Part shown: positions 2,769 to 59,445 of the stretch, piece by piece
How the letters are laid out: each line of letters starts with the position of its first letter
How positions within the stretch are numbered: position 1 is the first letter of the stretch
IMG/VR virus record: IMGVR_UViG_3300046777_000773
Location: 1 to 60,347 of that record
Source: a virus
Lineage: Duplodnaviria; Caudoviricetes
DNA length: 60,347 nucleotides
Reading direction: 5' to 3' (one strand)
The notes under the pieces: generated by a model
The model's database searches: none
The model's input: only the letters and a program-made list of their open reading frames with translations
What the model was told of the DNA's origin: nothing
Position numbers and translations under genes: made by a program

Positions 2769-3029
2769 ATGGATTTGGCTGCGATGTGGAAAGTCCTCTC
2801 AGACGTATTGTTGCCGCTGGCTTTGGCGTGGGCTGCCTATCTGCACAGGGAACTAAAAGCAATGGACCAGAAGATCGACAAGCTCCACGATGATCACTTC
2901 CGCCACGTAGCCCAGGTCAACAAGGACTTTGCAACCCGTGAGGTAGTCAGCGAGCTTGAAAACAAACTCACAGTTGTGTTAAATAGAATCGACGATAAAG
3001 TCACACGCATCCTTCAGGAGCGCAAGTAA
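2769..3029 (+). CDS. Small membrane-anchored coiled-coil protein
   Basis: N-terminal hydrophobic helix, then heptad pattern. Confidence 0.6.
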   Translation: MDLAAMWKVLSDVLLPLALAWAAYLHRELKAMDQKIDKLHDDHFRHVAQVNKDFATREVVSELENKLTVVLNRIDDKVTRILQERK

Positions 3030-3589
3030 TGCCCTCTACCTATGATCCCCTTTTAAGGCTTGAGCTACAGGCGACCGGCGAGAACGCCACAACCTGGGGC
3101 ACTAAGACCAACAACAACCTCGAACTCATCGCGGCTGCCATTGCAGGCCAGACAACCCTCACGCTGTCCTCTGCTGACGTCTCGCTTACCGAAGCCAACG
3201 CTGCCACCGATCAGGCCCGCGCTGCTATCCTCGTGCTGAACGGCACCCTCATCAACGACGTCAACATCGTGGTGCCCGCTCAGTCCAAGACTTATGCCAT
3301 CCTACGCCAGACCTCGGGCGCCTTCAACATCACCGTCAAGAACCCCACCGGCACTGGCGCAGTCCTTCCCGCCTCTGGCACCGAGATTGTCGTCTGCACC
3401 ACCGCCACCTGTGTCGGTCTTGTAAACTCAGTTGCTTCCCAAGTAGCTTCTGTGTCCGCTCAAGTTTCTATTCTTGGCGTGCAAGTCAGCAACATAGCCA
3501 CATCAGTGTCGGCTTTGCAAACTCAGGTCGACGCTGTGTCGGCTGCTGTTAGCGTCATCAACGCCCTCAATATTCGCATCATCGAGTAA
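3029..3589 (+). CDS. Tail-associated structural protein with VSA-rich coiled-coil C-terminus
   Basis: MPSTY..LRLEL.ATGEN..TWG.KTN.N N-terminus typical of phage tail proteins. Confidence 0.65.
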   Translation: MPSTYDPLLRLELQATGENATTWGTKTNNNLELIAAAIAGQTTLTLSSADVSLTEANAATDQARAAILVLNGTLINDVNIVVPAQSKTYAILRQTSGAFNITVKNPTGTGAVLPASGTEIVVCTTATCVGLVNSVASQVASVSAQVSILGVQVSNIATSVSALQTQVDAVSAAVSVINALNIRIIE

Positions 3590-3591
3590 CC

Positions 3592-5448
3592 ATGTCGGCT
3601 TCGCTCCAAGATCAACGCCTCACAGAACTGAACTTCAAAGTCGGCGTCATCAAAGAGAACACCGAACTGGATGCGACCGGCCATTGGGTCGATGCCGACA
3701 AAATCCGTTTCCGCTTTGGGCGCCCCGAACTTATGGGCGGCTGGCAAAGCGTCATTGACCCCTCGCAGGCCAACAAGATCTCCGGCATCCCGCGCCTCCT
3801 AGATACGCTCCGCAATCGGCTTAGTCAGCAGGCAGCATTCATCGCCACTAACCAGGGTGCTTTTTCTAGCGAGTTGTCGACATTCTACAATATTACGCCC
3901 GTGGTGTCAACCCTTGCGACCTCGGACATTCTGTCAACGACGGCAGGCTCCAACAAGATTGTCGTGTCTGTTTCGGCGCACGGCCTCGTGGACGGCACCC
4001 TCGTAGAGATCGTCTCAGCGGCGGCCACCATCGGCGGCAACGTCGTCATCAACCCGGTGTCTTCTGTTTCGGCTATGTTCCCCGTGAGCGTGGTCGACGC
4101 TAACAGCTTCTCCATTCAAGTATCAACGACGGCTGCGGCAACCTCGGCAGCAACGGGCGGTGCCATCACTATCGGCTTTTGCTACAATGCTGGACCCGAA
4201 GACACCACACAGCAAAGCGGCTGGGGCACCGGCGCGTGGGGCGGGAACTTCGGCTGGAACCAAGCCGCAGGTGCAGTTCCGCTTCCGCTTCGTCTGTGGT
4301 CCGCTGATCTTTGGGGCACCGATTTGTTGGCCGTTCCTTCCAAAGGTCCGCTCATGTATTGGAATACGAGCGCCGGTATCACAGAACGCATGACCATTGT
4401 GACGACCGCGCCCTCCGTCAACCAGATCGTGCGGGTAGCCTCAGAAGCCCGGCACGTCCTGCTTTACGGTACCCACGACGTCAGTGGCTCCTATGATCCG
4501 CTCCTGATTAGGTGGTGCAGCCAAGAAGACTACACCGATTGGACACCGTCGGGCGTCAACAATGCAGGCGACTACGTGCTGCCAAGCCGTGGCTCCGAAA
4601 TCCGCGCCGTCAACCGGGTGCGTGACAAGACCGCCATCCTCACCGACAGTGATCTGTACATCCAGTCCTACATCGCAGGCAACGACGTCTTCGGCTTCGT
4701 GGCAGCAGGCGAACAGTGCGGTGTCATCGCCCGCAATGCAGCCATCGAATATCGCGGCGTCCTTTACTGGATGTCAAACAACGGGCAGTTCTACATGTAC
4801 GATGGGCGCGTGCAACCTCTTGCTTGCACTGTTCTTCGCTTCATCTACGATAACCTAGACGTCAACAATCTCGAAAAAATCTACGCGGGTGCCAATTCCA
4901 CCTTCGACGAGATTGTCTGGTTCTATCCGTCCTCCAGTTCTACGAACGGCGAGAACGACCGCTACGTTATCTACAACACCTCAGAGCGGCACTGGACCAT
5001 CGGCACCATGCCTCGCACGGTCTGGGAAGATAGCGGCACCTTCGAATATCCGCTCGCCCTCAACGACATCCCGTCCAACGTCTACTATCAAGAGTACGGC
5101 TACACTGCTGACACGTCGGCCCTGGCTGCCAATCTTGAGAGCGCCTACTTCGACACGCAAGACGGCAACACCATCATGTTCGCCAACAAGTTTGCTCCTG
5201 ACTTCGGCAACATCTCCGATAACACGCCCTATTCGGGAACCCTTAAGGTATCCTTAATAGCACGCAAGTACCCAGGCGGCGCCGTCACTACCAAGGGTCC
5301 CTTCGCCGTGACGGGCACGACCCAGAAAGTCTCGACCCGCCTGCGTGGCCGTGAGTTCGCTATCCAGATCCAGTCGTCGACCTCCTCCAATGTACCATGG
5401 CGCATGGGGCAGTTCCGTATGGCCATTGAACCGGACGGCCTACGATGA
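3592..5448 (+). CDS. Tail nozzle / stabilization protein (tail tubular B, P22 gp10-like)
   Basis: 618 aa beta-propeller-like; WVDADKIRFRFGRPE, IRWCSQED, EIVWFYP, RLRGR motifs; position. Confidence 0.7.
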   Translation: MSASLQDQRLTELNFKVGVIKENTELDATGHWVDADKIRFRFGRPELMGGWQSVIDPSQANKISGIPRLLDTLRNRLSQQAAFIATNQGAFSSELSTFYNITPVVSTLATSDILSTTAGSNKIVVSVSAHGLVDGTLVEIVSAAATIGGNVVINPVSSVSAMFPVSVVDANSFSIQVSTTAAATSAATGGAITIGFCYNAGPEDTTQQSGWGTGAWGGNFGWNQAAGAVPLPLRLWSADLWGTDLLAVPSKGPLMYWNTSAGITERMTIVTTAPSVNQIVRVASEARHVLLYGTHDVSGSYDPLLIRWCSQEDYTDWTPSGVNNAGDYVLPSRGSEIRAVNRVRDKTAILTDSDLYIQSYIAGNDVFGFVAAGEQCGVIARNAAIEYRGVLYWMSNNGQFYMYDGRVQPLACTVLRFIYDNLDVNNLEKIYAGANSTFDEIVWFYPSSSSTNGENDRYVIYNTSERHWTIGTMPRTVWEDSGTFEYPLALNDIPSNVYYQEYGYTADTSALAANLESAYFDTQDGNTIMFANKFAPDFGNISDNTPYSGTLKVSLIARKYPGGAVTTKGPFAVTGTTQKVSTRLRGREFAIQIQSSTSSNVPWRMGQFRMAIEPDGLR

Positions 5449-10800: not shown

Positions 10801-13800
10801 TGAGTGGTAATTTTGAATTTGAACTGCCTGACGGGCGCGTAATTCTAGTAGAGGGTGCGCCCTCAGCAGAAGCCGCCAAAGAGTTCATGGATGCCCAGTG
10901 GCCTACATTGCGCCGCCAGACGCCTATCCGTGGTTTTGGTGGTAGTGCCAATGAACAATTCTGGAGCCAGCTTGCTGGATTGCCGGGCGCTGCTGAAGCC
11001 GTTGCTGCTGCGGTCAATGCCCCCGAAGCCCGTGACTATCTACGCAGTGTCAGCGAAGGTATCAATGTACCAAATGACCCGCGCACCCGTCCTCCCGAAC
11101 TAAGTGATCTTGTAAGCAGCCGTGCCGTCGCCGCTGTCAAAGCTTACGCAGGGCAAGCTGCCGGGTCAATCGCAGGCATGGTCCCCGGTGCTGTCGCTGG
11201 CGCTGGTGCTGGTTTTCTTGTAGGTGGTCCTGCCGGGGCGGCGGCTGGTGCGCGTATTGCAGCAGGCGGTCAAGCTGCCTTAAGCGGTGTCAGTGAACTT
11301 TATCGCGGCCTCGTTGATGAGGGCGTTGATCCCACCGTTGCAGGCCGCATTGCTATTCCAGTGGGCGCAGCCATCAGCCGTATCGAAAACCGCTATGTCG
11401 AACAGGCCCTTGCTCGCTCGCTTGGTGGTCAGGTATCACAGGACGCAATCGGTCGCCTTGCCCAACGAGTTGTAGGCGGACGTGCGGGTGGCATTCGTCA
11501 AACTGCCGTGGGCGGCGCTGCTTCTGAAATGGCCGGTGAAGCTCTCCGTGAAACAACGCGCGGCGTAGTAACTGGTGAAGCCAATCTACCCGAGCGTCTT
11601 TCGCGCGTAGCTGAAGCAGGCATCGTCGGTACGCTCGGCGGCGCAGGCGTCGGTGCAGCTACACGCATGGCAGGTGGTGCGCCGCCCTCTATTCCAGAAG
11701 GCCAACAAGCCACCCCCGCGCAACCTACAGTTGAACAGGAGCCCGCGCCTACAACCGAAGCCGCGCCCGCGCCGGAAGCTGTTGCACCCGAAGTTGCGCC
11801 TGCACCTGCACCCGCATCGACGCCCGAAGCCGTAGCGCCCACACCTACACCTACGCCCGCGACTGCTGTTCAGCCAGAAGTAACACAGGCCCCCGTCACG
11901 GAAGCTGCCGCTCCTGCACCCGAGGCTCCCCCTCAAACTACACGGGAAGCCGCACCCGCGACTGGTGAAACGGCGGGGCCCGGTATCATTGCCAATCGCC
12001 ATATCGGTAACGTCATTACAGAAATGACCGCCGACGGCTTTACGACAGCGAAGGGCAGCACCTACCAGATCAACGAACAAGGCCAAACTATCCGCACGAA
12101 GTTGTCGCCGGGCAGAGGCCAAGGTACTACTTACGAACCACACAATGCCCTCTATGTGACACCTCAAGATTCTCTTGACTTGCTGACAGATATGCAGGGT
12201 GGCGGCAAGTACCGCTTTGTCGTCAATACTCCCAACGGCCCGCAAGTGTTGGGTCCTGATGAAGTTATCGGAGATCGCCAAGCCGCTATTGCAGTATTCA
12301 ATCCAAGCGGCAGTTTCGATAGGTTCATCAACGCAGAAAAGACGCCTGCCGTTGGCTTGGCTCCAGTTGAATTGCGCTACGATACTGGCCAGACCGAAGC
12401 TGCACCCGCACCCGCACCCGAAGCCGCTGCACCCGCACCTGCGCCTCAGATTACGCCTGAGCAAGAGCAGGGACTCTGGAGGGGCTACAGCCTGAACGCC
12501 GGGCCGGAAGCGCAGAGCCCTATCGTCCAGGCTGCCCGTGATGTTGCGAGCCAGCGTCAACGCCCCTTCACGCGGCCTGAATTTGCTGAGTTCGCGAATG
12601 CTGTTGCAAGTGCCCCTACCCCCGACGCACAGCAGGCAGTGTTACAGAATTACAGCGCACTGCGCCAAGCTCCTACTGCCGACCAAGTCACTCCTGCTGA
12701 AGCCGTCGGTGCGCCGCGCGGTACGCCACAGATGACAGAGCCCGAACGGCAACAAATCAAGGAGCAGATTGACGAGCCTATCATCGGGTCCGTGTTAAAT
12801 TTCTTTGCTTCGCCCATCCTGACTTTGACTAGATTGTCGCGGGCATTCGCGCCGGTACGTACAGCCTTCATGAAATTTACAGCACTGGACAACTTCTATA
12901 AGACAGCGGCGGCAGCTTCTCACAAATCCTTGAACAGCCTAAGCGACGCTTCCAAGCAGAAAGTTATCTTGGGACTGGACAGAGCCCGCCGCGAACGCAA
13001 AGAAATAAACCAAGCAGATTATACTGCTGAAGAACTGAATGCTATCCGTGACTTCCGTTCGCACATGAATTTCATTTACAACAATGCCATTGAAGCGGTA
13101 GCACGCAAGTACTTTGACCCGGCGCTTGCGACTGATCCTGCTCAACGCACCAAGCTGCAAGCCCTGCAAGACAAGCATATGGGCAAGTTCCTTACTGAGA
13201 TTCCAGCGGCAGAACTCAACGCCGTATCGCCTGAAGGAAGCGCGCTTGTAGAAAAGTACAAGGCTGCTCGCGACCCGTTCTTCTTCCCGCAGCGCACATC
13301 AGGTTCCCACTTTGTTGCTGCTTACGAACGCTTGCCGAACGGCAAAAAGAAGTTGGTTGCCCTCTACGGTTACAATCCGTTACGCCCGTGGCAGCGCGCC
13401 CGTGGTTTTGAAAACCCTGAGACTACAGCGATCCGCAAGCTGCGTGAAGAATTTCCTGACGCTAACACCCACTACGTCATGACATCTGGCGTCAAGTTCA
13501 AAAACGACGAGCAGGCTTTCAACTTGAAGCGTGACGGGGATTTCATCAACAAGTACCTCGATAGCTTGCGGGATGTCAGCGGCAAGGAAGGTCGCGAGAT
13601 TATTGACCGCATGTCAGCAGAAATCAAGAAGGCTAACATAGACTCTTTGTTCAAGCCTTACAATGGTATCTTGCGTGCAGTTACACCCGAGAACGCCGTG
13701 GAGTATGCCAGCAACTATTTGCCTGCGTATTACTTGACGGCGGGTCGTCTCAACGCGCGGCTCTACAGCCAAGAAGATTTCGACCAAGCATTCAAGCCGC

Positions 13801-15968
13801 TACGCCCCGAGAACCGCGAACTATTTGAGGGTGTTCTGGCTAACGGAACCGCGCCCGTCGAAGCTTACGGTACGGCACAGACCTTCGTATTCTTTCAGTA
13901 TCTTGGGTTTGCCTTAGATACTGCGGCAGTTAGCGGCCTGCAAATTCCCACCTCAGTGGCGCCTCGCCTAGGACGCGATGGTGGTGTCGCACGTGGATCA
14001 AAGTATTTAACTGAGGCACTGGCCGACTCTCTTTTTGACAAGGCTATTTTCAGCGTCCTCAAGTCTGACCAAGCTTATGCCAAAGCCATCGCCGATAAGC
14101 AAATCCGCAAAGACGAAGCTGACGCTTTGAGGCGCGCTATCCAGCGGGGTGTCTTTGTTCCCACATCGGCTTTCCGTATGCAAGGTAGCGTTTCGGCTGC
14201 TGATGTGCGGGCTGCTGGTATAGCCGACAAGGACGCCGTCAAGTTTGCCAATGGCGTCAACACCGTCGTGGATCTAGCCGGGCGCCCTCTTGCAGCCATC
14301 GAAGAGTTCGGGCGCTCCAGCACATTCATGGCTGCCTATCGGATGGCGCGCGACAATCCAAGCGTAATCGAGCAAGCCAATCGCTATGACAATACCAACT
14401 ACAAGAACGCCGAAGATTATGCGGCAGGTGTAGTATTCGACACTTGGTACACGGGGTCTAGGCTAGACGATCCGGGTTTCCTTCGGCAATTCCCTATCCT
14501 TAATTTGGCTACGCAGTTCATGCGCCCGGTCTTTAAATTTACTGAGACGGTATTGCGCGATGCCACCAAAACTCTGAAAGCTATGGCAGCACGCGACTTG
14601 ACTATGGCTCGCATTGGTGCTATATCTGTGTTCGGCTCCCTAGCTCCGCTTGTTTTATTGGGCGGCATTTGGGCGCTTCCGTTTGCTGACCTTAGTCGCG
14701 AACTGCTTGAGCGCATGCTTAAGACGTTCTTTGACAATCCGTTGGATCTGCGCCTAGAACTGGACCGCGCGATGGGCGGTGGCTACCTGGGCGAGGCTGC
14801 AAACTATGGCTTGCCTTCCGCCTCTAATATCGCCAACCTCTCTAAGCGTATTGCCGTCGACCCGGTTCCCTCCGACACCCTGTTCAGTTGGAGTACGCTT
14901 GCGCTCTTTGGGCCGGGCGGCGATCTGCTCCAGCGCATTCCCAAAACGTATGAGCATTGGAAGCGCGGCGAATACTGGGAAGCTGCGGCTTCCTTCCCCT
15001 TCACTCCGCGCGTAGCTGGCAATGCGATCAAAGGCACGCAGCTTGCTGTTGCCGAAGAGCAATTCACTCAGGCCGGTACACGCTTCATAACGCCCGAACT
15101 GCTAGAGCGTGTGGACAGCAGGCTTGCTGTGCCTTCCAGCGTACGTCAGGCTCTCGGCTTCCCGGCTCCTGAACTAGCCAATGAGCGTGAGTTGTATCGT
15201 CGCCAAAAGGTCATCGACGACGCTACTGATGAAGCCACTAAGTCCATTAACATGGAACTGTCTCGGTTCTACTTGCGCGCTATAGAAGCCCAACGGAACG
15301 GCAACATGGATGAAGCTTACCGGCAGGTTGCTGCTTTGCAAAAGCGTTATGTAGAATTTATTGCCGAACAGCAATCAAAACCCCTCCATCTGCGGGTGAT
15401 TCCTAATATAGACTCGGCACGTGAGCGCGCTCGGCAAGACTTGTTTGGTCGCAGTAGTAATCAAATCCTTCTTGAGGAAACGCGCCGCCAAGCTCGCCCT
15501 GCCCTGCTGCCAATCCTCGAAGAGATGCGTTGGCGCGACCGTCCCGGCTTCGCCGAAGGCGGTGAGGTGCGAGGCGAAGAGAGGTTTCCAGTTAGGCAGC
15601 CATATGAAAGTGAACTGGAGTTTTTTGAAAAGAACCCGAATGTCACGGGTATGGCTGCCGAGGATGGCAAGGTAATCCTGAATCCCTATTCAGATCTATC
15701 GGAACAAGAACGGGAAGCAGTGGTTCTCAATGAACGGGCTAGGCTGGCGATTCGTGAAGGTCTCGTCCCGCCTCCTAACTTTGTGCTGACCCCTGAGCAA
15801 ATGGCAGTCTTTAGCCGTATCAACAATGGGCGCCCTTATGGCAATCCTCAAGTCATTAAGGAAACCTTAGCAGCCCGTATACTGTCAGGTGATCCGTCTG
15901 CTCAAAAGCCTACCCGCGCTCAATTAGAATACGTAGAAGAGTTGCGCCAGGCTCTTAGCGCGCCTTAA
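10800..15968 (+). CDS. Very large internal virion (ejection, polyvalent-like) protein
   Basis: 1722 aa; Gly/Ala hydrophobic N-region, Pro/Ala/Glu linkers, helical body, C-terminal domain after FAEGG. Confidence 0.7.
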   Translation: MSGNFEFELPDGRVILVEGAPSAEAAKEFMDAQWPTLRRQTPIRGFGGSANEQFWSQLAGLPGAAEAVAAAVNAPEARDYLRSVSEGINVPNDPRTRPPELSDLVSSRAVAAVKAYAGQAAGSIAGMVPGAVAGAGAGFLVGGPAGAAAGARIAAGGQAALSGVSELYRGLVDEGVDPTVAGRIAIPVGAAISRIENRYVEQALARSLGGQVSQDAIGRLAQRVVGGRAGGIRQTAVGGAASEMAGEALRETTRGVVTGEANLPERLSRVAEAGIVGTLGGAGVGAATRMAGGAPPSIPEGQQATPAQPTVEQEPAPTTEAAPAPEAVAPEVAPAPAPASTPEAVAPTPTPTPATAVQPEVTQAPVTEAAAPAPEAPPQTTREAAPATGETAGPGIIANRHIGNVITEMTADGFTTAKGSTYQINEQGQTIRTKLSPGRGQGTTYEPHNALYVTPQDSLDLLTDMQGGGKYRFVVNTPNGPQVLGPDEVIGDRQAAIAVFNPSGSFDRFINAEKTPAVGLAPVELRYDTGQTEAAPAPAPEAAAPAPAPQITPEQEQGLWRGYSLNAGPEAQSPIVQAARDVASQRQRPFTRPEFAEFANAVASAPTPDAQQAVLQNYSALRQAPTADQVTPAEAVGAPRGTPQMTEPERQQIKEQIDEPIIGSVLNFFASPILTLTRLSRAFAPVRTAFMKFTALDNFYKTAAAASHKSLNSLSDASKQKVILGLDRARRERKEINQADYTAEELNAIRDFRSHMNFIYNNAIEAVARKYFDPALATDPAQRTKLQALQDKHMGKFLTEIPAAELNAVSPEGSALVEKYKAARDPFFFPQRTSGSHFVAAYERLPNGKKKLVALYGYNPLRPWQRARGFENPETTAIRKLREEFPDANTHYVMTSGVKFKNDEQAFNLKRDGDFINKYLDSLRDVSGKEGREIIDRMSAEIKKANIDSLFKPYNGILRAVTPENAVEYASNYLPAYYLTAGRLNARLYSQEDFDQAFKPLRPENRELFEGVLANGTAPVEAYGTAQTFVFFQYLGFALDTAAVSGLQIPTSVAPRLGRDGGVARGSKYLTEALADSLFDKAIFSVLKSDQAYAKAIADKQIRKDEADALRRAIQRGVFVPTSAFRMQGSVSAADVRAAGIADKDAVKFANGVNTVVDLAGRPLAAIEEFGRSSTFMAAYRMARDNPSVIEQANRYDNTNYKNAEDYAAGVVFDTWYTGSRLDDPGFLRQFPILNLATQFMRPVFKFTETVLRDATKTLKAMAARDLTMARIGAISVFGSLAPLVLLGGIWALPFADLSRELLERMLKTFFDNPLDLRLELDRAMGGGYLGEAANYGLPSASNIANLSKRIAVDPVPSDTLFSWSTLALFGPGGDLLQRIPKTYEHWKRGEYWEAAASFPFTPRVAGNAIKGTQLAVAEEQFTQAGTRFITPELLERVDSRLAVPSSVRQALGFPAPELANERELYRRQKVIDDATDEATKSINMELSRFYLRAIEAQRNGNMDEAYRQVAALQKRYVEFIAEQQSKPLHLRVIPNIDSARERARQDLFGRSSNQILLEETRRQARPALLPILEEMRWRDRPGFAEGGEVRGEERFPVRQPYESELEFFEKNPNVTGMAAEDGKVILNPYSDLSEQEREAVVLNERARLAIREGLVPPPNFVLTPEQMAVFSRINNGRPYGNPQVIKETLAARILSGDPSAQKPTRAQLEYVEELRQALSAP

Positions 15969-15975
15969 TAAATTC

Positions 15976-16004
15976 TTGACAAGTTGCAAGCCTTCAGGTA
16001 TGCT
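15976..16004 (+). promoter_or_regulatory. Sigma70 promoter, probably leaderless transcript
   Basis: TTGACA-N17-TATGCT, then 6 nt to ATG 16011. Confidence 0.7.
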
Positions 16005-16010
16005 GAGGGC

Positions 16011-16781
16011 ATGTCTAAGTTTGCCTACTACATTGGCGTGGACCACCGAGAGCCGGACGCACTGCGAGTTACCGAGGCGTCTGTCCGTGCTTACGCCAGC
16101 AAGCCCATTGAAGTCAAGCACCTAGAACACATTGAACTGCGACGCCGACAACTATTTGATCGGCCCTGGCGCGTCAACGAAGACGGTACATATACTGACG
16201 AACGGGACGGCAAACCATTTAGCGTACAGTTCTCGCATACCCGCTTCCTGACTCCGGTCGTGGCCAAGCTCGACGGCGTCACTGACTGGGCGCTCTTCAC
16301 AGATTGCGATTGGCTGTGGCTCGACGACATTCACAAGCTGCTGCAAGAAGCTGACTCCTCTAAGACGGTCATGGTTGTACCACACCGCTTCGAGCCTGAC
16401 AAGTCCACAAAGATGGATGGCCAAGTACAATCGCGTTACAAGCGTAAAATGTGGTCAGCCCTGATGCTGTGGAATATGAAGTCCAACAAGCTGCCCACCG
16501 TCGAGATGGTGAACGAAGCCACCGGCAACCACCTCCACACCTTCGGCTGGCTGAACGATTCCGACATCGGCTACCTCTCTGAGTCGTGGCATTGGATTCC
16601 CAACTACAGCCCGACCACCGAAGCTGCCCAAGACTCTGAGATGCGGGGCAAGACCGTTCCCGTCAACGCAGTCCACTTCACCTTCGGGCCTCCTGTCGAC
16701 GGCATGATCGACCGCGAACCCACACCCTTTGACAATTTTTGGCATAACGAACTGACGGACGCTTACCACAATGCACGCTAA
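16011..16781 (+). CDS. Glycosyltransferase (GT-A, GT8-like)
   Basis: YIGVDHRE, FSHTRFLTP, ALFTDCDWL (DxD), RKMWSALMLWN, VHFTFGPP. Confidence 0.85.
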   Translation: MSKFAYYIGVDHREPDALRVTEASVRAYASKPIEVKHLEHIELRRRQLFDRPWRVNEDGTYTDERDGKPFSVQFSHTRFLTPVVAKLDGVTDWALFTDCDWLWLDDIHKLLQEADSSKTVMVVPHRFEPDKSTKMDGQVQSRYKRKMWSALMLWNMKSNKLPTVEMVNEATGNHLHTFGWLNDSDIGYLSESWHWIPNYSPTTEAAQDSEMRGKTVPVNAVHFTFGPPVDGMIDREPTPFDNFWHNELTDAYHNAR

Positions 16782-18915
16782 AATCGTAACGACCTTGGGG
16801 CCGGGCGGCTGGGAAACCTATGGTCGCCGCTTCGTCGAATCCTTCATCAAGTTCTGGCCCTCCGAAATGCGTCTCGAAGTGTGGCACCACGATGTCACGG
16901 GCGACTTCCCTGCCTACGACCGTGTCACCTTCCACGCTCTTGAGAAGACGGCCTCCTTCCAGAAGCTGAAAGCCAAGCTGGGCACCCAAGCCAAAGACGG
17001 GCCGACCCTCCAGTATTGCTTCAAGGCTGTGGCTCTTGCCTCTGCTGTAACGCCGGACCTCGACTGGATCGCCTTCATTGACGCCGACACCGAGACCATG
17101 CGGCACGTGGACAGCCAGCTTCTCGATCAGCTTTTCGATGACAAAGTCCACCTGACGTACCTCTATAGGCGTTCGGTTGCGGAAAGCGAAGGCTCGTGGT
17201 TTGCATTCAATGTGGCCACTGTCAAGGGCGCCTCACTACTGGCTGACTACTGGGGTCTCTACGATTCCTTCGAAGCATTCCACTACAAGAAGGCCCATGA
17301 CAACGCGATCCTCGATAGGCTGGTAGTTCTGCACAAGGCGCACGGGCTTCTCGTGAAGGACCTGTCTCCGGGCGCTCTCGGGCTGGACGCATTCCACCAG
17401 TCCCCGCTTGGTGCGTACATGATCCACTACAAGGGGCCGGACAAGCAGACCATCGCCAACCCGGCACTCGGCGCACCCGCCCGCTACGAAACGCTTTGTG
17501 AATTGCTGACTGCTTCCATCAAGGCAACCGGCAAAGCAAACATCGTCGAGGTCGGCACATGGAACGGCAGCCGCGCTATCCAGATGGCCGAAGCTGCCTT
17601 TGCTGCGGGCGCCACTCAAGTGTCCTATGTCGGCTTCGACACCTTCGAGGATGGCAACGACCGCACCCATGAGGGTCACACCAAACCCCATGCCAATTCG
17701 TGGATGGTAGGTAATCGCCTAAACAACTATAGCCGCATGATGTCGCGGAAGGGCTTGACTTTTGACTACACTCTGCTAAAGGGTAACACTCTCGAAACCC
17801 TGCCCCGAGCGGGCGAAGTAGTAAAGGAAGCCACGTTCGCCTACATCGACGGCGGCCATTCCTACGACACAACGAACTCGGACTACCAGCATCTGAAGCA
17901 CGTGCCGTTCGTAGTCTTCGATGATGTGATTGCCGAAGAGGAGGACGGAGCGCCCGAGGGTCCGCGCAAGGTGTGGCAGGAAGCCAAAGGGCAGAAGCGC
18001 CTCATCACCAGTGGCGACGGCTACGCGGGTCTGAAGCAAACCATTTCCTTTGGGGTGGTGGTACGCAAGGGCTACCAGATGCCGGAACTTCGGACCCGCA
18101 TCCAAGTGAAGCCTATCGACTCGGTCGACAAGGGCGAGCAGCTACAACACATTGCCGAGAACGCCAAGGCTTTGCAGAAGTGGATTGGCTGCTACCAAGC
18201 CCACAATAAGACGGCTATCTTCGTGAGTGCCGGGCCGACTGTGCCTCAGTTCCTCGAAGAAATCAAACGGAAGCAGGCTGCGGGCGCCACGATCTTCACA
18301 GTCAAGCATGCGTTTCCGATCCTCAAGAAGGCAGGCATCAATCCAGACTGGACAGTCATCTTAGATCCGCGTCCCATTGACGGCAAGTCCACGCACGGTA
18401 TTATCAGGACCGACTTGTTCGCTGATGCGAAGCCCCGCGATAAGTTCCTGTTTGCGACTATGACGCATCCGTCTGTCCGTACCTACCTTGAGGAGAAGGG
18501 CGCTGATCTATACGGCTGGCACGCTCATACGCAAGCTACCGTAGCAGCAAAGCCCGCAGCCTTCGACATGGGCACCGTGGTCATGGGTGGCACCTGCTCC
18601 GCAACCCGGATTCCGATGCTGGCTTTTGTGATGGGCTTCCGTCGCTATGAGTTCTACGGCTACGACTTCTTCTATCCCGAGGACACTAACCAGGGTGATG
18701 TGAAGCAGGCGCTGATGCGCGTGACTTTGGGCGCCGAGCAGAAGTCCTACCTGACCACAGGTGAACTGGTGGCTGCGATGCAGGATCTGGGGCAGTGGAA
18801 CAAGTGGCTGGTGGAGAACCGGATCTCGGTCACGTTCCACGGCGACGGCGCGGGCAAGACTATCTGGGAGCAGACTGTCAGCAACTACACCCCTCCAGAG
18901 GAGTATCCCTTCTGA
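16771..18915 (+). CDS. Fusion: GT-A glycosyltransferase + class I SAM methyltransferase + DUF115/Maf (MptE-like) domain
   Basis: FIDADT (DxD) and HYKG; VEVGTWNG, GFDTF, YIDGGHSY, VFDD; SAGPTV, ILDP, GGTCSATR..GFR...YGYDF. Confidence 0.8.
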   Translation: MHAKIVTTLGPGGWETYGRRFVESFIKFWPSEMRLEVWHHDVTGDFPAYDRVTFHALEKTASFQKLKAKLGTQAKDGPTLQYCFKAVALASAVTPDLDWIAFIDADTETMRHVDSQLLDQLFDDKVHLTYLYRRSVAESEGSWFAFNVATVKGASLLADYWGLYDSFEAFHYKKAHDNAILDRLVVLHKAHGLLVKDLSPGALGLDAFHQSPLGAYMIHYKGPDKQTIANPALGAPARYETLCELLTASIKATGKANIVEVGTWNGSRAIQMAEAAFAAGATQVSYVGFDTFEDGNDRTHEGHTKPHANSWMVGNRLNNYSRMMSRKGLTFDYTLLKGNTLETLPRAGEVVKEATFAYIDGGHSYDTTNSDYQHLKHVPFVVFDDVIAEEEDGAPEGPRKVWQEAKGQKRLITSGDGYAGLKQTISFGVVVRKGYQMPELRTRIQVKPIDSVDKGEQLQHIAENAKALQKWIGCYQAHNKTAIFVSAGPTVPQFLEEIKRKQAAGATIFTVKHAFPILKKAGINPDWTVILDPRPIDGKSTHGIIRTDLFADAKPRDKFLFATMTHPSVRTYLEEKGADLYGWHAHTQATVAAKPAAFDMGTVVMGGTCSATRIPMLAFVMGFRRYEFYGYDFFYPEDTNQGDVKQALMRVTLGAEQKSYLTTGELVAAMQDLGQWNKWLVENRISVTFHGDGAGKTIWEQTVSNYTPPEEYPF

Positions 18916-19085: not shown

Positions 19086-19329
19086 ATCGTTTTGCGATGT
19101 TGGCTGCGGAGGCGGGTTGCTTTGAGAATTGCTTGCCCGCTTTCGTGGCTTTCTTTTTGGCAGCGGACGAAGCAGCATACGTACTAGCTGGCATAGCCTT
19201 GATCGCAGCTTCTGGAAGGTATCTCTCACCTGTAGCCTCCGGTCCCTGAGTTGACGGCTTACCAGACTTGGTTCGCCATTTCTGTTTTGTCCAATCTACT
19301 AGCGATTGTTGAGTTTTCTTAAGTGCCAT
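19078..19329 (-). CDS. Conserved small basic phage protein
   Basis: QQSLVDWTKQKWRTKSGKPS...GERYLPE. Confidence 0.7.
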   Translation of the reverse strand: MALKKTQQSLVDWTKQKWRTKSGKPSTQGPEATGERYLPEAAIKAMPASTYAASSAAKKKATKAGKQFSKQPASAANIAKRFR

Positions 19330-19783
19330 CGCCGTAGTTTCCTTTTGTTTCTAGGTATTCAGCGGCCCTACGCAAGATTGTAGGACTGTCTTGAAGCATC
19401 CCTATGGCGCGATTGCATTTCTTGCATAGGATTCCTCTGAATTCCCCTGTCTTATGATTGTGATCAATCGCACTATCCATTTGGCTTATGGTTTCGTAGC
19501 AGACTAAACACTTACCCTCTTGAGCTTCATAAGCGGTTACAAATTCAGCGGGCGTAATGTTATACCTAGCACAGCGTTTAACTAATGTCCAAGCATCACG
19601 CCCGCGATATTCTTTAACGCGATCCTGATTATCGGCGCACCATTTTTTATGGGTCGAATAGTGGCAAGTTTTGCACCACGATTTAAGGAGGTGCTTCATG
19701 TTACCACCTCGTGAACGAAACTCCGTTAACGGCTTTTCGATTTCACATTTGGTGCATTGTTTAACTGCGGTAGCCGCCGCCAC
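19319..19783 (-). mobile_element. Free-standing endonuclease VII-family (HNH-type) homing endonuclease gene
   Basis: N-terminal CxxC..CxxC; CLVC...IDHNHKTGEFRGILCKKCNRAIG; AT-richer than flanks. Confidence 0.8.
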
Positions 19784-26189: not shown

Positions 26190-26654
26190 TCAGACTCCTG
26201 TTGAGCCGAGACCGGAGGCCCCGCGTTCTGTGGTTGTGAGGTCGTCGATTTCCACAACTTCGAGTTGGGGGAGGGGCAGGACCATGAGTTGGGCGATACG
26301 CATGCCCGGCTCGATCATGAAGATGTCTTCGGACGGCCACTGCGGGGAGAAGGGATGGCGGGCCAAGATCACTTTGAGTTCGCCACGGTAGTCTTCGTCG
26401 ATCACGCCCGGTGCATTCAAGACTTGCAGGCCCTGCTTGTGGGCGAGGCCAGAGCGCGAGCAAACTAGGCCGACGTGACCGGGGGGAAGCTCGATGGCAA
26501 TGCCGGTGCCAATGGTGCGGCGGGTCCGCATGTCGTCAACCCATGCACGTTCGTCGGCGTAGAGGTCAAAGCAAGCAGCCCCGGCAGTGGCGCGGGTGGG
26601 GAGGATTGCGGTGCTGGAGAGCCGCTTGAACTTTAGAGTCCTAACCATTGGCAT
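26190..26654 (-). CDS. dut: Trimeric dUTPase
   Basis: AACFDL, RSGLA, GVIDEDYRGE, RIAQL, RGASGLGSTG. Confidence 0.95.
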   Translation of the reverse strand: MPMVRTLKFKRLSSTAILPTRATAGAACFDLYADERAWVDDMRTRRTIGTGIAIELPPGHVGLVCSRSGLAHKQGLQVLNAPGVIDEDYRGELKVILARHPFSPQWPSEDIFMIEPGMRIAQLMVLPLPQLEVVEIDDLTTTERGASGLGSTGV

Positions 26655-41479: not shown

Positions 41480-41926
41480 ATGATCTGTAAAGGTTGTCTG
41501 CAAGACAAACACGAAGAATCTTTTGTTTTGCGTAAGGATAGGTCAGGGCGGCGCCGTCCATATTGCAATGACTGCCGCAATAACGTAGAACGCGCCCGAT
41601 ACGAGAACCATAGACGGCTACAACCTTTTAAATTGCGTTGTAGTCGGGCACGGGCTAGGGCTAAGTTTTTAAAGGTTCCCTTTGACTTAACCCCGGCGTA
41701 TTTGGAAAGTATTTGGACAGGGCAGTGTCCTGTATTAAAGTGCCCAATCCATTGGAGTACTGACCGTAAAAATGAGTACGCGGCAGAGCTTGATAGGCAC
41801 GTTCCTAGCTTAGGATATGTTAAAGGTAACGTAACCTTTTTAGCTAGAAAGGCTAATAGACTGAAGAACAATTCTACTGTAGAAGAACTGACCAACCTTC
41901 TGGAATGGATGAAACAATGGAAGTAG
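41480..41926 (+). mobile_element. Free-standing His-Me finger/HNH-like homing endonuclease gene
   Basis: CxxC..CxxC; CPVL; LDR...LGYVKGNV....KAN.LK; AT-rich. Confidence 0.8.
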
Positions 41927-42555
41927 TGTATCTTAATCATATGGGTGATGACCGTATGGTCGTCAATGCGGCCCGTGTGTCCTTTGGCAAGCGCACCATG
42001 GAGTTCCGCCTGGGCAAGGACGATCGCCTCATTAAGTACTTGGCGCGTCACAACCATACGCTGCCCTTCGCCCATCCGCAAGTGCAGTTCCACTTCAAGG
42101 CGCCTCTGTTCGTGGCCCGGCAACTGGCCAAGCACCAAGTAGGCTTTGTGTGGTCCGAGATCAGCCGTCGCTATGTGAAGGACGAGCCCGAACTATACTG
42201 GCCCAATAAGTGGCGCAAGGCAGCGGCAGACATCAAGCAGGGCAGCAGCCAGGAGGAGTTCACAGATCCCTTCGGCTCGGCTCTGCGTGCCCATACGACG
42301 GCCCGTGCGCTGGTGTGGGACTATAGGCGTCTGGTGCAGGATGGCATGTGCCCCGAACAGGCCCGGATGATTTTGCCGCAAAATATGTACACTGAGTGGC
42401 ATTGGACGGGTTCCCTTTTGGGCTGGAGTCGTGTATGGAACCTCCGTGTCAAGTTTGATGCCCAGGCCGAGACAAGAGAGGTAGTAGAAATGATTGGTCC
42501 GATTATGGAGAAGCTATTCCCTTACAGTTGGAAATCATTAACCAACTCGGACTAG
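41917..42555 (+). CDS. thyX: Flavin-dependent thymidylate synthase
   Basis: VVNAARVSF, H..PF.H, FVARQLAKH, SEISRRY, PEQARMILPQ, AQAE. Confidence 0.95.
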   Translation: MEVVYLNHMGDDRMVVNAARVSFGKRTMEFRLGKDDRLIKYLARHNHTLPFAHPQVQFHFKAPLFVARQLAKHQVGFVWSEISRRYVKDEPELYWPNKWRKAAADIKQGSSQEEFTDPFGSALRAHTTARALVWDYRRLVQDGMCPEQARMILPQNMYTEWHWTGSLLGWSRVWNLRVKFDAQAETREVVEMIGPIMEKLFPYSWKSLTNSD

Positions 42556-45353: not shown

Positions 45354-47681
45354 GTGGCTACGGCACAGAAAATTTCGCAGCTTACCACGGCAGGTCCATT
45401 GACCGGCGCCGAACTTGTGCCTGTTGTCCAGAACTCCGGTACCCTCCAAACCACCGTATCTGCCCTCAAAGCCTACACTATTGTATCCATTACGCCTGAA
45501 ATCTCGGCCCTTAATACGCGTGTCGACCAAGTCTCTGCGCTAATATCTTCTAATGCTGTTGCCATCGCATCATTGTCTGCCCAAGTGTCGGGGGCTTTGG
45601 TGGCGGTGGCTTCCCTCAGTGCAGCAGTATCCACGCTTACTATCCGCGTCGATGATGTTTCTGCCATAGCTACCTCCATCGGAGCCGTCGTCTCCACTTT
45701 TGACACTCGCATCTCAGATGTGTCGGCGGCAGTCGTCTCTGTCAATGAAGTAGTGTCTGCTCTCGATATTCGTGTAAGCGATGTATCAGCGGCAGTAGTG
45801 TCTGTCAACAATGTGGTCTCGGCTTTAGAGGTTCGCGTCAGCAGCGTATCAGCCGTAGCCTCTGCCAACACAGCAGCCATAGCCAACGTATCTGCTCTAG
45901 TATCGGCGGTAGATGTCAGGGTTGCAGCCGTCTCAGCCTCGGTTTCTGCCCTTAACGTACAGATGGTGCAGGCCCTTGCCTCCATTTCAGCTATCAATTC
46001 TGTACTTGCTACCATCGACACATCGGCTATCACCGGCTTAGAAGTCCGCGTTTCTACCCTTGAAATCCGGGTCACCGACGTATCGGCCTCAGTATCGGCG
46101 CTCCAAGTCCAGCTTAACGCCGTATCTGCTCTGACGTCCGTCAATGCCGCTGCCATCACCTCCATCAATGCAGTCGTCTCGACCAAAGTCAATCGCGTCG
46201 GCGACTACATGGACAGCGTCCAGTACATCGAGTTCGACACCTCCACTGTCATTGCGACTTCAGTTGGGCGCCTGTCTTGGGACATTGATTATGGTACTCT
46301 CGACATCGGTCTTTCTGGTGGTAATGCTAACGTACTCGTCGGCCAGCGTCAAGTAGCCTACGTCTACAACAACACAGCGGCTACTATCGAAAAGGGCAAG
46401 GTTGTCGAAGTCACAGGGGCTTCAGGTCAGCGCCTCACCGTCAAGTTAGCCCAGGCCAACAGCGACGCCAACAGTGCCACTATTCTCGGCATCATGCTTG
46501 AGACGGTCTCTGTAAACAATTCTGGTTACGTAGGCACCAACGGCATTATTCGCAACGTCGACACAGGTGCCTTCACTGATGGTCAGATTGTTTACTTGTC
46601 TCCGGTCTCGGCGGGTGAACTTACCGCTACTAAGCCCGTCGCCCCGCAGCACCTAGTCCTTATCGGCTACGTGGTCAAGGGCGGTTCGGTCGGTGCAGGT
46701 TCCATCTACGTCAATACCCAAAACGGCTACGAACTGGGTGAACTGCACGACGTCAAAGTCTCCTCCAGCCTTTCCATCGCCAACAATGAAGTCCTCGCAT
46801 ACAATACCAGCGCAGGTGTCTGGACCAACTCCACCGTCCTAATCGAGACCCAGGCTTCCATTTCGGTTCTCCAGATTCAAGTCGATGCAGTATCCGCAGC
46901 AACCTCTGTAAACGCCGCTCATATTGCTGCCGTCAGCGCCTCAGTCAGCGCCCTCCAAATCCAAGTGGATGCTGTCTCGGTTGCTACCTCAGTCAATGCT
47001 GCTGCTATCACTTCTGTTAATGCAGTAATCTCGGCTCTCGACACTCGGGTCGGTGCAGTCTCTGCGGCCACTTCCGTAAACGCTGTAGCCATTGCTGCCG
47101 TTGCCGCTTCGGTCTCCGTTCTCCAAATCCAAGTCGACGCAGTCTCAGCAGCTACTTCTGTCAATGCAGTAGCTATTGCAGCCGTCTCCGCAGTCGTAAG
47201 CACCCTCCAAATCCAAGTCAATGAGGTATCGGCGGCAGTCTCAGCAGCTTTAGTATCGGTAAGTCAGCGGGTCCTCAAGGCTGGTGATACGATGTCTGGC
47301 GAACTGAACATGGCTGACAATCTGGTTACGCGGCCCAAGTTCAAGGACTACGCACTCCAAGTCGTTACACGGGCCAGTGCTTCTGCTACCACCACGCTCG
47401 ACCTGACCGAAGGTAACTTCTTTGCTATTCGTGCAGCAGGCAGTACTACCTTTGTGTTCGCCAATCCTCCGGTCTCCTCTGCCAATGGTCCGGCTGGTGG
47501 GGGCTTCATCTTAGAACTTCAGAATGGCGGGGCAGCTACAGTCACTTGGCCTGCGGCAGTTGATTGGCCGGGTGGTACAGCGCCTACGCTCACATCCAGC
47601 GGCTATGACGTATTCGTCTTCATCACTGACGATGGTGGTACTGTCTGGCGCGGTGTTCAATCCATGAAAGATAGCAAGTAG
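45354..47681 (+). CDS. Long tail fibre with VSA-rich coiled-coil shafts
   Basis: KISQL N-terminus, heptad repeats, central ELGELHDV domain, C-terminal TWP..V.WPGGTAP domain; upstream TGCTATACT. Confidence 0.8.
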   Translation: MATAQKISQLTTAGPLTGAELVPVVQNSGTLQTTVSALKAYTIVSITPEISALNTRVDQVSALISSNAVAIASLSAQVSGALVAVASLSAAVSTLTIRVDDVSAIATSIGAVVSTFDTRISDVSAAVVSVNEVVSALDIRVSDVSAAVVSVNNVVSALEVRVSSVSAVASANTAAIANVSALVSAVDVRVAAVSASVSALNVQMVQALASISAINSVLATIDTSAITGLEVRVSTLEIRVTDVSASVSALQVQLNAVSALTSVNAAAITSINAVVSTKVNRVGDYMDSVQYIEFDTSTVIATSVGRLSWDIDYGTLDIGLSGGNANVLVGQRQVAYVYNNTAATIEKGKVVEVTGASGQRLTVKLAQANSDANSATILGIMLETVSVNNSGYVGTNGIIRNVDTGAFTDGQIVYLSPVSAGELTATKPVAPQHLVLIGYVVKGGSVGAGSIYVNTQNGYELGELHDVKVSSSLSIANNEVLAYNTSAGVWTNSTVLIETQASISVLQIQVDAVSAATSVNAAHIAAVSASVSALQIQVDAVSVATSVNAAAITSVNAVISALDTRVGAVSAATSVNAVAIAAVAASVSVLQIQVDAVSAATSVNAVAIAAVSAVVSTLQIQVNEVSAAVSAALVSVSQRVLKAGDTMSGELNMADNLVTRPKFKDYALQVVTRASASATTTLDLTEGNFFAIRAAGSTTFVFANPPVSSANGPAGGGFILELQNGGAATVTWPAAVDWPGGTAPTLTSSGYDVFVFITDDGGTVWRGVQSMKDSK

Positions 47682-47689
47682 GGAATCCC

Positions 47690-48163
47690 ATGGCAACCTA
47701 TAAAATCAGCGGCCTTACATCTGCTACAGCGGTTTCGGCCACCGACCTCTTCGAAATCTCCAAGGTATCGGTCTCCGCCTACGGCTCTCGCCAAGTTACC
47801 GGCGCCCTGCTTCGCACCTATGCCCTGACCGAAATCTCGGGCTACACCCTTGCGCGGACTTCGCTTGCCAACGTCTCTGCGACCACGACCCTCGATCTCG
47901 CCAGCGCCAACTTCTTCTCGGCTCAAGTCAGCGGCAGCACCACCTGGGTCTTCGCCAACCCGCCCACCAGCACCGTTGCCGCAGGCTTTATCCTTGAGCT
48001 TACCAATGGTGGCGGCTATACCAACACATGGCCGTCAGCAGTCAAGTGGCCTAACGGTACTGCTCCCACGATCACAACCAGCGGCACCGACGTCTTCACG
48101 TTCATCACCGATGATGGCGGCGTCATTTGGCGCGGTGTCCAATCCATGCAGGACTCCAAGTAA
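47690..48163 (+). CDS. Short paralog of the long tail fibre
   Basis: Same KIS.L N-module and ...FITDDGG..WRGVQSM.DSK C-module, no shaft. Confidence 0.75.
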   Translation: MATYKISGLTSATAVSATDLFEISKVSVSAYGSRQVTGALLRTYALTEISGYTLARTSLANVSATTTLDLASANFFSAQVSGSTTWVFANPPTSTVAAGFILELTNGGGYTNTWPSAVKWPNGTAPTITTSGTDVFTFITDDGGVIWRGVQSMQDSK

Positions 48164-50178: not shown

Positions 50179-50619
50179 ATGGAAATTCGCATTCAAGCTA
50201 CGGGAGCAGTTGTGACGGAGCAAGAGTTCCGTTCCATGTTCCCCAACACCAGCCTTCCCGTTCCCTTAACGGAGGCAGCTATCAACGGTCTCGGCGGCGA
50301 CATCGTCTTCGAAGGCCCCCAACCCGTCGCTACTCGCTACCAGACTGTAGTCCGTCAAGGCGTCATCCAGCTAGGCGACAAGTGGTACACCAACTATGTA
50401 GCGGTCGACCTGTCCCCGGAAGCTTGCACAGCCCTTGACGAGCAGCAAGCATCTGCTGTCCGTGCTGACCGCAACGCCCGCCTTGCAGCCTGCGACTGGA
50501 CTCAAGTAGCCGATGCCCCTGTCGACAAGACCGTGTGGGCTACCTACCGTCAAGAGCTTCGGGACATCTCCTCTCAGCCGGGCTTCCCTTGGGAAATTAC
50601 TTGGCCGACCAGTCCGTAG
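50179..50619 (+). CDS. Tail fibre assembly chaperone
   Basis: VRADRNARLAACDWTQ..D...WATYRQELRDI..QPGFP...WP. Confidence 0.85.
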   Translation: MEIRIQATGAVVTEQEFRSMFPNTSLPVPLTEAAINGLGGDIVFEGPQPVATRYQTVVRQGVIQLGDKWYTNYVAVDLSPEACTALDEQQASAVRADRNARLAACDWTQVADAPVDKTVWATYRQELRDISSQPGFPWEITWPTSP

Positions 50620-58854: not shown

Positions 58855-59445
58855 GTGGCACAGTCTTTTGCCCCGTTCGGTCTCCGCGCTATTGCTGCCC
58901 TCGGCACGCATGGCAACGAAGTCCGCGCTTATCCGCTCCCCAATGGCGCTAACTGCCCTGACCTCGGTAAGGGGTCTCCGGTAAAGCTGTCGGGTGGCGT
59001 TATTACGTCTGCTGGTACAGGTGGCGGCCCGCTTCTGGGTGTTGCTGCTGGCTTCGCTTGGATCGACCCGACCACGAAGCAACCCCAGCTTAAGAACTCA
59101 ATCCCCGCAGATACGTCTTCGGCTGGCCTGTACGACGGTTCCGACCGCCCGACCGCCTATGTCGTGGACAATCCGTTCGCGCTCTTCATGATTCAGGCTG
59201 ACGCTTCCGTTACGGCGGGCGACCTCGGTCTCAACTTTGATGTGACTGCGGCGGGCGGCGATGTCAACTCGGTGTACGGTACGTCCCAGTATGCACTGGA
59301 TGCGTCCACTCGTACCTCTGCGGTTGGCACTGCTGTGAAGCTTGTGGGTCTGGCCAACATTGTCGACAACAACTGGGGCGATCCGTACCCGGTCCTGATC
59401 GTCAAGCTGAATGGTCCGATCCTCCAGCAGGTTTCTGCGGCTTAA
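58855..59445 (+). CDS. Capsid decoration/cement protein
   Basis: APFGLR, G.PVKL, LLGV..G, VVDNP..LF.IQAD; precedes capsid gene. Confidence 0.65.
   Translation: MAQSFAPFGLRAIAALGTHGNEVRAYPLPNGANCPDLGKGSPVKLSGGVITSAGTGGGPLLGVAAGFAWIDPTTKQPQLKNSIPADTSSAGLYDGSDRPTAYVVDNPFALFMIQADASVTAGDLGLNFDVTAAGGDVNSVYGTSQYALDASTRTSAVGTAVKLVGLANIVDNNWGDPYPVLIVKLNGPILQQVSAA

Follow-up and report, generated by a model that had tools for sequence, protein, structure and literature searches.

Serine-rich repeat glycoproteins (SRRPs) use a GtfA/GtfB initiating pair together with an accessory Sec system, and enzymes of the GT8 glycosyltransferase family extend the glycan of one of them, Fap1. The (E/V/I)S repeats of Fap1 are described as O-glycosylated on Ser (PMC3601411), and flagellin as O-glycosylated at exposed Ser/Thr acceptors (PMC3765264). 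For phages, a secondary statement in PMC12619734 places the glycans of mycobacteriophages at the C-termini of capsid and tail-tube subunits. Here we analyzed a complete virus record of 60,347 bases (IMG/VR record IMGVR_UViG_3300046777_000773; hereafter the window, i.e., this stretch at its full length), which is the genome of an SU10-like podophage. An initial annotation had reported that the tripeptide Val-Ser-Ala (VSA) is enriched in the long tail fibre encoded at 45354..47681 and across unrelated virion proteins, and had proposed that it constitutes a modification site used by the phage's own glycosyltransferases. We favor a different explanation, with a probability of roughly 55%: VSA would be purely a structural signature, its excess outside the fibre would be a habit of the lineage, and its serines would be unmodified.

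The fibre is composed of an N-terminal anchor, an N shaft (residues ~30-275), a central beta domain (~276-504), a C shaft (~505-640) and a C-terminal beta domain. The features concerned are the following (aa, amino acids):

45354..47681, + strand: long tail fibre, 775 aa, with PHROG tail-fibre matches on its C-terminus
45441..46178, + strand: N-terminal coiled-coil shaft, aa 30-275, with 15 of the 24 VSA of the fibre
46866..47273, + strand: C-terminal coiled-coil shaft, aa 505-640, with 8 of the 24 VSA; same repeat family, of the type LQIQVDAVSAATSVNA

More than 20 VSA had been estimated by eye in this fibre; we counted 24, versus 2.57 expected from the fibre's own composition (p ~1e-15; all p-values are nominal, for a tripeptide picked after the genome had been read) and 3.7-4.0 in local shuffles. 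The shafts hold 23 of them, 13 in heptad register a-b-c and 10 in register d-e-f. The register of the shafts is V(a)S(b)A(c)L(d) or V(d)S(e)A(f), with Val in the core, Ser at b or e and Ala at c or f, and hydrophobic periodicity presents power peaks at 3.5 and at the harmonic 2.35 in both shafts. The repeat profile, built from 739 unique units of 120 family proteins, reads V81 S89 A73 L100 ... V78 S83 A82, and its core positions are mostly hydrophobic and beta-branched (a = V81/V71/I50; d = L100/V78). In the fibre, VSA is with certainty the signature of a structural heptad repeat.

The best PDB sequence matches of the shaft are trimeric coiled-coil fibres: the reovirus sigma-1 tail (6gao; E 2e-4), whose aligned segment is likewise Ser-rich beside the core residues, and the tail needle gp26 (4lin; E 6e-4). 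An AlphaFold model of the fibre monomer, of low confidence (mean predicted local distance difference test, pLDDT, of 43), contains helices at residues 47-123, 140-275, 497-569 and 579-635 and beta structure elsewhere. Based on these sequence matches and periodicities, the shaft is most likely a homotrimer. We propose that the two long alpha-helical shafts form a trimeric coiled coil built from units of ~28 residues, or four heptads (VVSALEIRVSxVSA..S.NAAAITS.NN), in which Val would fill one of the core positions (a or d) and the Ser and Ala that follow would face outward (b/c or e/f). The initial annotation had asked whether the serines are buried; those of the shafts are not in the core and lie at b and e, the latter only partly exposed in trimers.

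A repeat at the DNA level was ruled out: Tandem Repeats Finder returned nothing in the fibre gene, and 17 different 9-mers encode its 24 VSA, which indicates that the protein is the level under selection. Outside the fibre, 14 different 9-mers encode the 16 VSA. The lone VSA of the fibre outside the shafts belongs to the element LSPVSAGEL (aa 415-421; window 46596-46616), a conserved part of the central beta domain that stands outside the repeat and varies little or not at all among 22 aligned fibres.

The shaft is not restricted to this fibre. It is common to 156 protein clusters at E<=1e-5, and several kinds of C-terminal domain were found among the 20 shaft-sharing clusters that we inspected. 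All nine IMG/VR orthologues of the fibre keep VSA (8-33 each), with shafts of varying length and order. The shaft is a mobile module, of which the mosaic fibres of this large family contain duplicated, shuffled and exchanged versions. Two smaller proteins of the window are related to the fibre:

3029-3589, + strand: short-fibre-like protein, 186 aa, with a PHROG tail-fibre match
3419..3589, + strand: shaft module at the C-terminus of the 3029 protein, about 50-55 aa, with 3 VSA (BLASTP to the fibre shaft, E 2e-5 and 2e-4)
47690..48163, + strand: fibre paralogue of 157 aa, composed of the anchor and the C-terminal domain without the shaft (BLASTP)

A string common to the 3029 protein and the fibre had been pointed out previously, and it is indeed present, as VSALQTQVDAVSAA in the former and as VSALQIQVDAVSVA, VSVLQIQVDAVSAA and VSTLQIQVNEVSAA in the latter. 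In the relatives G001, G003 and G005 this shaft module is replaced. The 47690 protein is 64% identical to the fibre over 110 aa (BLASTP; E 8e-46), with a further match at the N-terminus (E 0.004); none of its three VSA aligns to a VSA of the fibre, and all three are kept in five orthologues (87-96% identity). These two proteins had been counted among the non-homologous folds enriched in VSA. This part of the claim does not stand, since one contains the same shaft module and the other is a paralogue of the fibre; elsewhere, the excess does lie in other proteins, namely the nozzle, the adaptors and small tail proteins. Periodicity, register, homology of the module and conservation across the family are direct observations.

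Giant repeat fibres of other phage contigs present their own dominant tripeptides: ALS is found 71 times in L081 6361-15709 (3115 aa) and 55 times in L088 12275-17513 (1745 aa), and TSI 31 times in L090 8902-13867 (1654 aa). A heavily overrepresented tripeptide is therefore ordinary for repeat fibres.

Across the whole genome, our curated gene set contains 41 VSA. The fibre contributes 24 of them; the other virion proteins add 16, where 4.06 are expected, and the non-virion proteins one, where 3.03 are expected. Open reading frames were called by us, leaving out those below 45 aa, and the split between virion and non-virion proteins is our own, based on PHROGs and Pfam matches and on gene position. 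Of the 41 VSA, 26 belong to the shaft module, whether in the fibre or at the C-terminus of the 3029 protein, and these 26 are explained without any modification. The other counts of the initial annotation proved exact (three VSA in the 47690 protein, three in the 3029 protein, three in the nozzle protein at 3592, one and two in the adaptors at 914 and 1579), as did the QQVSAA C-terminus of the 58855 protein and the presence of ISA in the proteins at 587 and 5445. Its remark that VSA is rare in the enzymes is also true, but this rarity is generic: non-virion proteins of four outgroup podophages are likewise low (7 versus 11.9 expected), and we ruled out the depletion in enzymes as evidence for a sequon. 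The sole non-virion VSA is located in a glycine-rich strand of the Maf-like protein described below.

A number of results sit uneasily with a purely structural signature and weigh against it. They begin within the shafts. Indeed, the serines at b and e (89% and 83% in the profile) are more conserved than the core valines (81% and 78%), which is unusual for outward positions of a coiled coil. Thr hardly replaces them: it represents ~1% of the residues at the first Ser position and does not rank among the six most frequent ones at the second. Moreover, the shafts are nearly uncharged, with 31 D/E/K/R per 382 aa.

One explanation of the outward Ser-Ala face is that it is selected for packing, in a six-helix or fibre-fibre bundle, against the capsid or against a chaperone, or else for a different modification of Ser, the non-fibre sites being unrelated. 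We observed Ile or Val at heptad position f in 89% of the units, an unusual choice for a position that should be exposed, and a b/c/f face of Ser/Ala/Ala; together these suggest that the coiled coil has something packed against its outer side. The scarcity of charge agrees with packing, and so does the presence of one gene 3' of the fibre genes:

50179-50619: tail-fibre assembly chaperone

Packing of this kind does not explain why the nozzle and adaptor proteins present an excess in particular clades, and we regard it as an improbable account of the data as a whole.

The remaining points concern the excess outside the coiled coil. When the fibre and the 3029 module were removed, the other virion proteins of the window still presented 13 VSA versus 3.8 expected; local shuffles of this set gave ~4 and reached 13 in 0 of 1000, and the remaining five permutations of the three residues occurred 2-6 times each. 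The initial annotation had staked its proposal on an enrichment that extends beyond the coiled coil, and this enrichment persists, dropping from ~9x to ~3x. It is located in non-internal virion proteins (10 versus 2.0; p 5e-5), as compared to 3 versus 1.84 in the ejection, portal and scaffold proteins, and it is concentrated in the nozzle, the adaptors and small tail proteins. When the 47690 protein was removed as well, 10 VSA remained versus 3.6 (p 0.004-0.007), a rank of 29 among 8000 tripeptides that is unremarkable alone. The main carriers are the following:

3592..5448, + strand: nozzle-like protein, 618 aa (phrog_3287), with 3 VSA at aa 127, 141 and 159 (0.41 expected)
914-1579 and 1579-2232, + strand: adaptor-region proteins with 1 and 2 VSA, respectively; PF24175 (SU10_adaptor) on 1579-2232
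58855..59445, + strand: head-module protein with the C-terminal QQVSAA, adjoining the major capsid gene (phrog_37556)

Both VSA of the 1579 protein are kept in four of four close relatives, and EFVSA is also present in G006, a member of a more distant clade. The C-terminal VSA of the 58855 protein is also kept in four of four close relatives; G006 and a second member of the distant clade, G008, have VTA and VTT at this place.

The excess is specific to VSA, as VTA, ISA, LSA, ASA, VSS and VST are not consistently raised; TSA is also ~2x, but it is high in some outgroups as well. Part of it has a simpler origin. Under a null model that takes dipeptides into account, the counts are 13 versus 7.3 in the window, 11 versus 5.7 in G006 and 9 versus 5.5 in G008, and V-S and S-A dipeptide bias explains about half of the non-fibre excess. 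Two other tripeptides exceed VSA in overrepresentation in the virion set, TTT (22 versus 5.7) and PAP (15 versus 3.5). These correspond to Thr/Pro-rich low-complexity linkers in two large proteins of internal or ejection type, 5768-8890 (aa 128-245) and 10800-15968 (aa 315-350 and 536-624). Thr/Pro-rich tracts are classical substrates of O-glycosylation.

We then compared the window to its relatives. In four close relatives the excess persists (6-10 versus ~2.4), but 4-6 of the sites are inherited, and we found no extra conservation of non-fibre VSA sites among them (4-6 of 9-10 kept, versus 37-47% for all triplets). The distant clade was reached through L090, whose contig ends before the region of the transferase genes described below, and longer records of the same clade were used. 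It presents 30% identity to the window in the nozzle and 60-62% in the major capsid protein, and a GC-content of 44-45% versus 55.8%. This clade repeats the excess in its non-fibre late block, with one VSA-rich fibre per genome set aside: 11 versus 3.98 in G006 and 9 versus 3.20 in G008 (p 0.003 and 0.006, respectively), as compared to 1 versus 2.35 and 0 versus 2.29 in the rest of the genome. Its sites are mostly at other positions, since all three nozzle sites differ from those of the window and a single adaptor site is shared. When the window and G006 were pooled, VSA ranked second of 8000 tripeptides.

No excess was found in four outgroup podophages (DSL-LC04, HTVC027P, 023Pt_psg01 and Pag-Yong1; nozzle identity 29-33%, major capsid identity 52-57%), whose virion blocks contain 15 VSA versus 15.8 expected (observed/expected ratio, O/E, of 0.95). 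The homologues of the nozzle contain 3, 3, 3, 2, 1 and 1 VSA in the enriched group versus 0, 0, 0 and 1 in the outgroups, and those of the adaptor 2, 2, 1, 2, 2 and 2 versus 0, 0 and 0. Similarly, 254 control proteins from unrelated phage contigs gave an O/E of 1.13, or 0.92 without giant fibres. A general trait of phage virion proteins was ruled out by these controls and outgroups, and an effect of nucleotide composition by the difference in GC-content between the enriched clades. In three of the four outgroups, 2OG-Fe(II) oxygenase genes were found inside the fibre blocks (L186 5604-6224 in DSL-LC04, L187 42580-43173 in HTVC027P and L189 43176-45094 in 023Pt_psg01), and these may represent a different modification of the fibre.

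The choice of the tripeptide after the genome had been read, a rank of 29 at a p-value where ~32 tripeptides are expected, and the 4-6 sites shared by close relatives would all fit a non-fibre excess made of chance and shared ancestry, with only the fibre repeat being real. We consider this very unlikely, because the excess is replicated in G006 and G008 at mostly different sites, because a nozzle with three VSA is found in each of three lineages versus 0.24-0.41 expected, and because outgroups and controls stay at expectation. The excess outside the fibre seems to be genuine and clade-specific, and it appears to track a pair of candidate transferase genes. Under the structural reading that we prefer, the excess in the nozzle, the adaptors and the small tail proteins would be a lineage-specific sequence habit of outer tail proteins, and the serines of VSA would remain unmodified.

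The premise that the phage encodes glycosyltransferases found support in two adjoining genes at the end of the late operon:

15984..16781, + strand: divergent GT8-like (GT-A type) candidate glycosyltransferase, 256-265 aa
16771..18915, + strand: protein of 714 aa in three parts, an N-terminal domain, a Methyltransf_24/TylF-like domain and an MptE-like (Maf-type) domain (Pfam)

The nearest clusters of the GT8-like protein in a language-model atlas are labeled glycosyltransferase (0.98; 217/256). PF01501 matches 5 of 25 aligned family members (best 1.6e-6) and is the precomputed label of 1 of 98 homologues; the protein of the window matches no Pfam family, and its predicted model is unusable (mean pLDDT 36.6). 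A DxD motif for the metal and nucleotide sugar and a late conserved His are features of GT8 enzymes. In the 25 sequences, D98-x-D100 and H222 are invariant, and a weak PDB match to WbbM (6u4b; E 0.31) aligns on the D98/D100 and H222 blocks. In GenBank, its homologues bear the annotation nucleotide-diphospho-sugar transferase or glycosyltransferase.

The 714-aa protein matches PF01973 (58.5 bits versus a cut-off of 34.6; aa 457-637) and PF13578 (35.5 bits versus 26.3), as well as TylF (E 0.003). Its match to the NCBIfam PseD model is at the domain level only (E 1.8e-10; 40 bits versus a cut-off of 670), and its only PDB match, over 55 residues (E 0.057), is 5mu5, which we take to be the Maf of Magnetospirillum. 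The N-terminal domain (aa 1-230; window 16771-17460) presents a D-A-D after a hydrophobic strand that is invariant in both clades. It has a sub-threshold match to Glycos_transf_2 (E 0.2) and may be a third GT-A-like module, judging from these sequence features.

That a candidate sugar-transferase pair is conserved in the late operon of this phage group is a further point in favor of modification. The pair was found in 36 IMG/VR loci of the window's clade (with the Maf-like query) and in four of five records of the distant clade (three of the three near-complete ones). None of the four outgroups was among the matches of the GT8-like or Maf-like searches. In an unrelated myophage, Pelagibacter phage Mosig (GenBank MT647606.1, 128084-129333), a homologue of the GT8-like protein adjoins a homologue of the N-terminal domain of the 714-aa protein, so that the gene pair recurs there.

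It is thus conceivable, though it seems to us clearly less probable than the structural reading, that the Ser of VSA is a preferred O-glycosylation acceptor on outer virion proteins, modified by the phage's own enzymes. Nucleotide sugars made by the host would serve as donors for the GT8-like protein, the Maf-like domain or both, and the transferred sugar would be methylated by the fused TylF-like methyltransferase, all in the cytoplasm and before assembly. The same residues of the fibre would be doubly used, Val holding the coiled coil together and the outward Ser bearing the glycan. Much of the above would follow: an excess that outlasts removal of the coiled coil and favors outer tail over internal proteins, that is kept by turnover of sites in a divergent clade, that is specific to VSA among related tripeptides and that is independent of GC-content and of the DNA word; the shaft serines that are conserved above the core valines; and the presence of the pair in both enriched clades and, by either search, in none of the outgroups. 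The modification of flagellin (PMC3765264), of Fap1 (PMC3601411) and of mycobacteriophage subunits (secondary statement in PMC12619734) provides precedents.

Other results argue against acceptor serines. The initial annotation had suggested that motif and transferase type should vary together across related phages. Two clades with the pair are enriched and four outgroups are not, but the two enriched clades are sister groups, so that this co-variation counts as one evolutionary contrast; possession of the VSA-type fibre itself is a further confounder. The outgroup HTVC027P possesses another annotated glycosyltransferase and yet shows no VSA excess. Dipeptide bias accounts for half of the excess and site conservation is no better than background. 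Heptad position e is partly buried in trimers, and 10 of the 23 shaft serines are at e, where a glycan would be awkward. We found no genes for nucleotide-sugar or nonulosonate synthesis in Pfam scans of the window, and the passages on flagellin considered here (PMC3765264) give no sequon for Maf-type enzymes. Finally, the transferases could target host surface structures or DNA instead. The inference of selection for a modification site therefore stands only in part: the non-fibre excess exists and is replicated in a divergent clade, but the bulk of the counts is the heptad repeat.

DNA as a target touches on another set of genes in the window. A dATP/dGTP diphosphohydrolase-like domain (PF18909; 25632-26168), a dUTPase (26190-26654) and ThyX (41905-42555) co-occur, a combination suggestive of a remodelled nucleotide pool and perhaps of modified DNA, which would be a rival target for the transferases. 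The general organization of the genome is as follows:

~40 kb through the record end and on to ~19 kb, + strand: late genes
19-39.5 kb, - strand: replication and lysis genes

The late block contains ThyX, ribonucleotide reductase, three fibre genes, the assembly chaperone, terminase, portal, head genes, adaptors, the nozzle-like protein and ejection proteins. There are two separate endonuclease VII-like genes, at 19319-19783 (- strand) and 41480-41926 (+ strand). The former is missing at the syntenic place in G001, G002 and G003, which suggests a mobile insertion of the homing type. Megablast against GenBank phages returned no relative of the window, and protein searches yielded only distant aquatic relatives (~30% identity).

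If the serines are glycosylated, virion glycosylation encoded by phages would extend from the capsids and tail tubes of mycobacteriophages to the receptor-binding apparatus of abundant aquatic podophages. VSA would then be the first sequon-like motif for O-glycosylation of phage virions and, beyond flagellin, the first substrate context of a Maf-type enzyme, providing a defined protein acceptor context for Maf-type and GT8-type enzymes and bearing on fibre-host recognition and on the stickiness of phages in water. If the serines are unmodified, the analysis still documents a large mosaic fibre family built on one unusually uncharged coiled-coil module with a Ser/Ala face, as well as a conserved uncharacterised transferase pair in a late operon, and it provides a worked example of a repeat that mimics a sequon.

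Our literature searches listed no work in which phage fibres are glycosylated by Maf-type enzymes or at V-S-A. The closest described systems each resemble the window in part. In SRRPs such as Fap1, Ser follows Val, Glu or Ile in a repetitive fibre and is O-glycosylated in the cytoplasm (PMC3601411). However, these proteins form long arrays of alternating X-Ser dipeptides and not coiled coils, whereas the shaft of the window is a heptad repeat; Pfam scans of the window revealed no transferase family of the GtfA/GtfB type, which places the fibre outside the SRRPs. The resemblance to the O-glycosylation of flagellin with nonulosonic acids by Maf proteins lies in the MptE-like domain of the 714-aa protein, which is above the Pfam cut-off, and in its domain-level match to PseD. 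In contrast, this MptE-like domain is fused to a methyltransferase and to an extra N-terminal domain, the 714-aa protein falls short of full-length equivalence with PseD, and the window contains neither flagellin nor a nonulosonate pathway.

The phage-encoded virion glycosylation of mycobacteriophages (the system of Freeman et al. 2023) is alike in that the glycosyltransferase genes reportedly lie within the structural operon or adjoin it, and that virion proteins of the phage itself are proposed as substrates. In the window, the candidate sites differ, being internal V-S-A of the fibre, nozzle and adaptor of a podophage, and the enzyme families differ as well. That a widespread group of uncultured, aquatic, SU10-like podophages sugar-coats its fibres, nozzle and adaptor with a two-gene system of its own (the GT8-like enzyme and the methyltransferase/Maf-like fusion), guided by a short Val-Ser-Ala context that would be part of the outward face of the fibre's coiled coil and dispersed over the other outer tail proteins, is offered as a tentative possibility, to which we lean less than to an unmodified repeat.

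The trimeric coiled-coil fibres of reovirus sigma-1 and gp26 (6gao and 4lin) are the structural counterparts. The match to them is weak and compositional, and in contrast to these fibres the shaft of the window has an outward face of almost pure Ser/Ala with very little charge, Ser conserved above the core Val, and Ile or Val at f. They nevertheless share with the shaft its heptad periodicity, its beta-branched or hydrophobic residues at a and d, and a polar surface rich in Ser, Thr and Asn.

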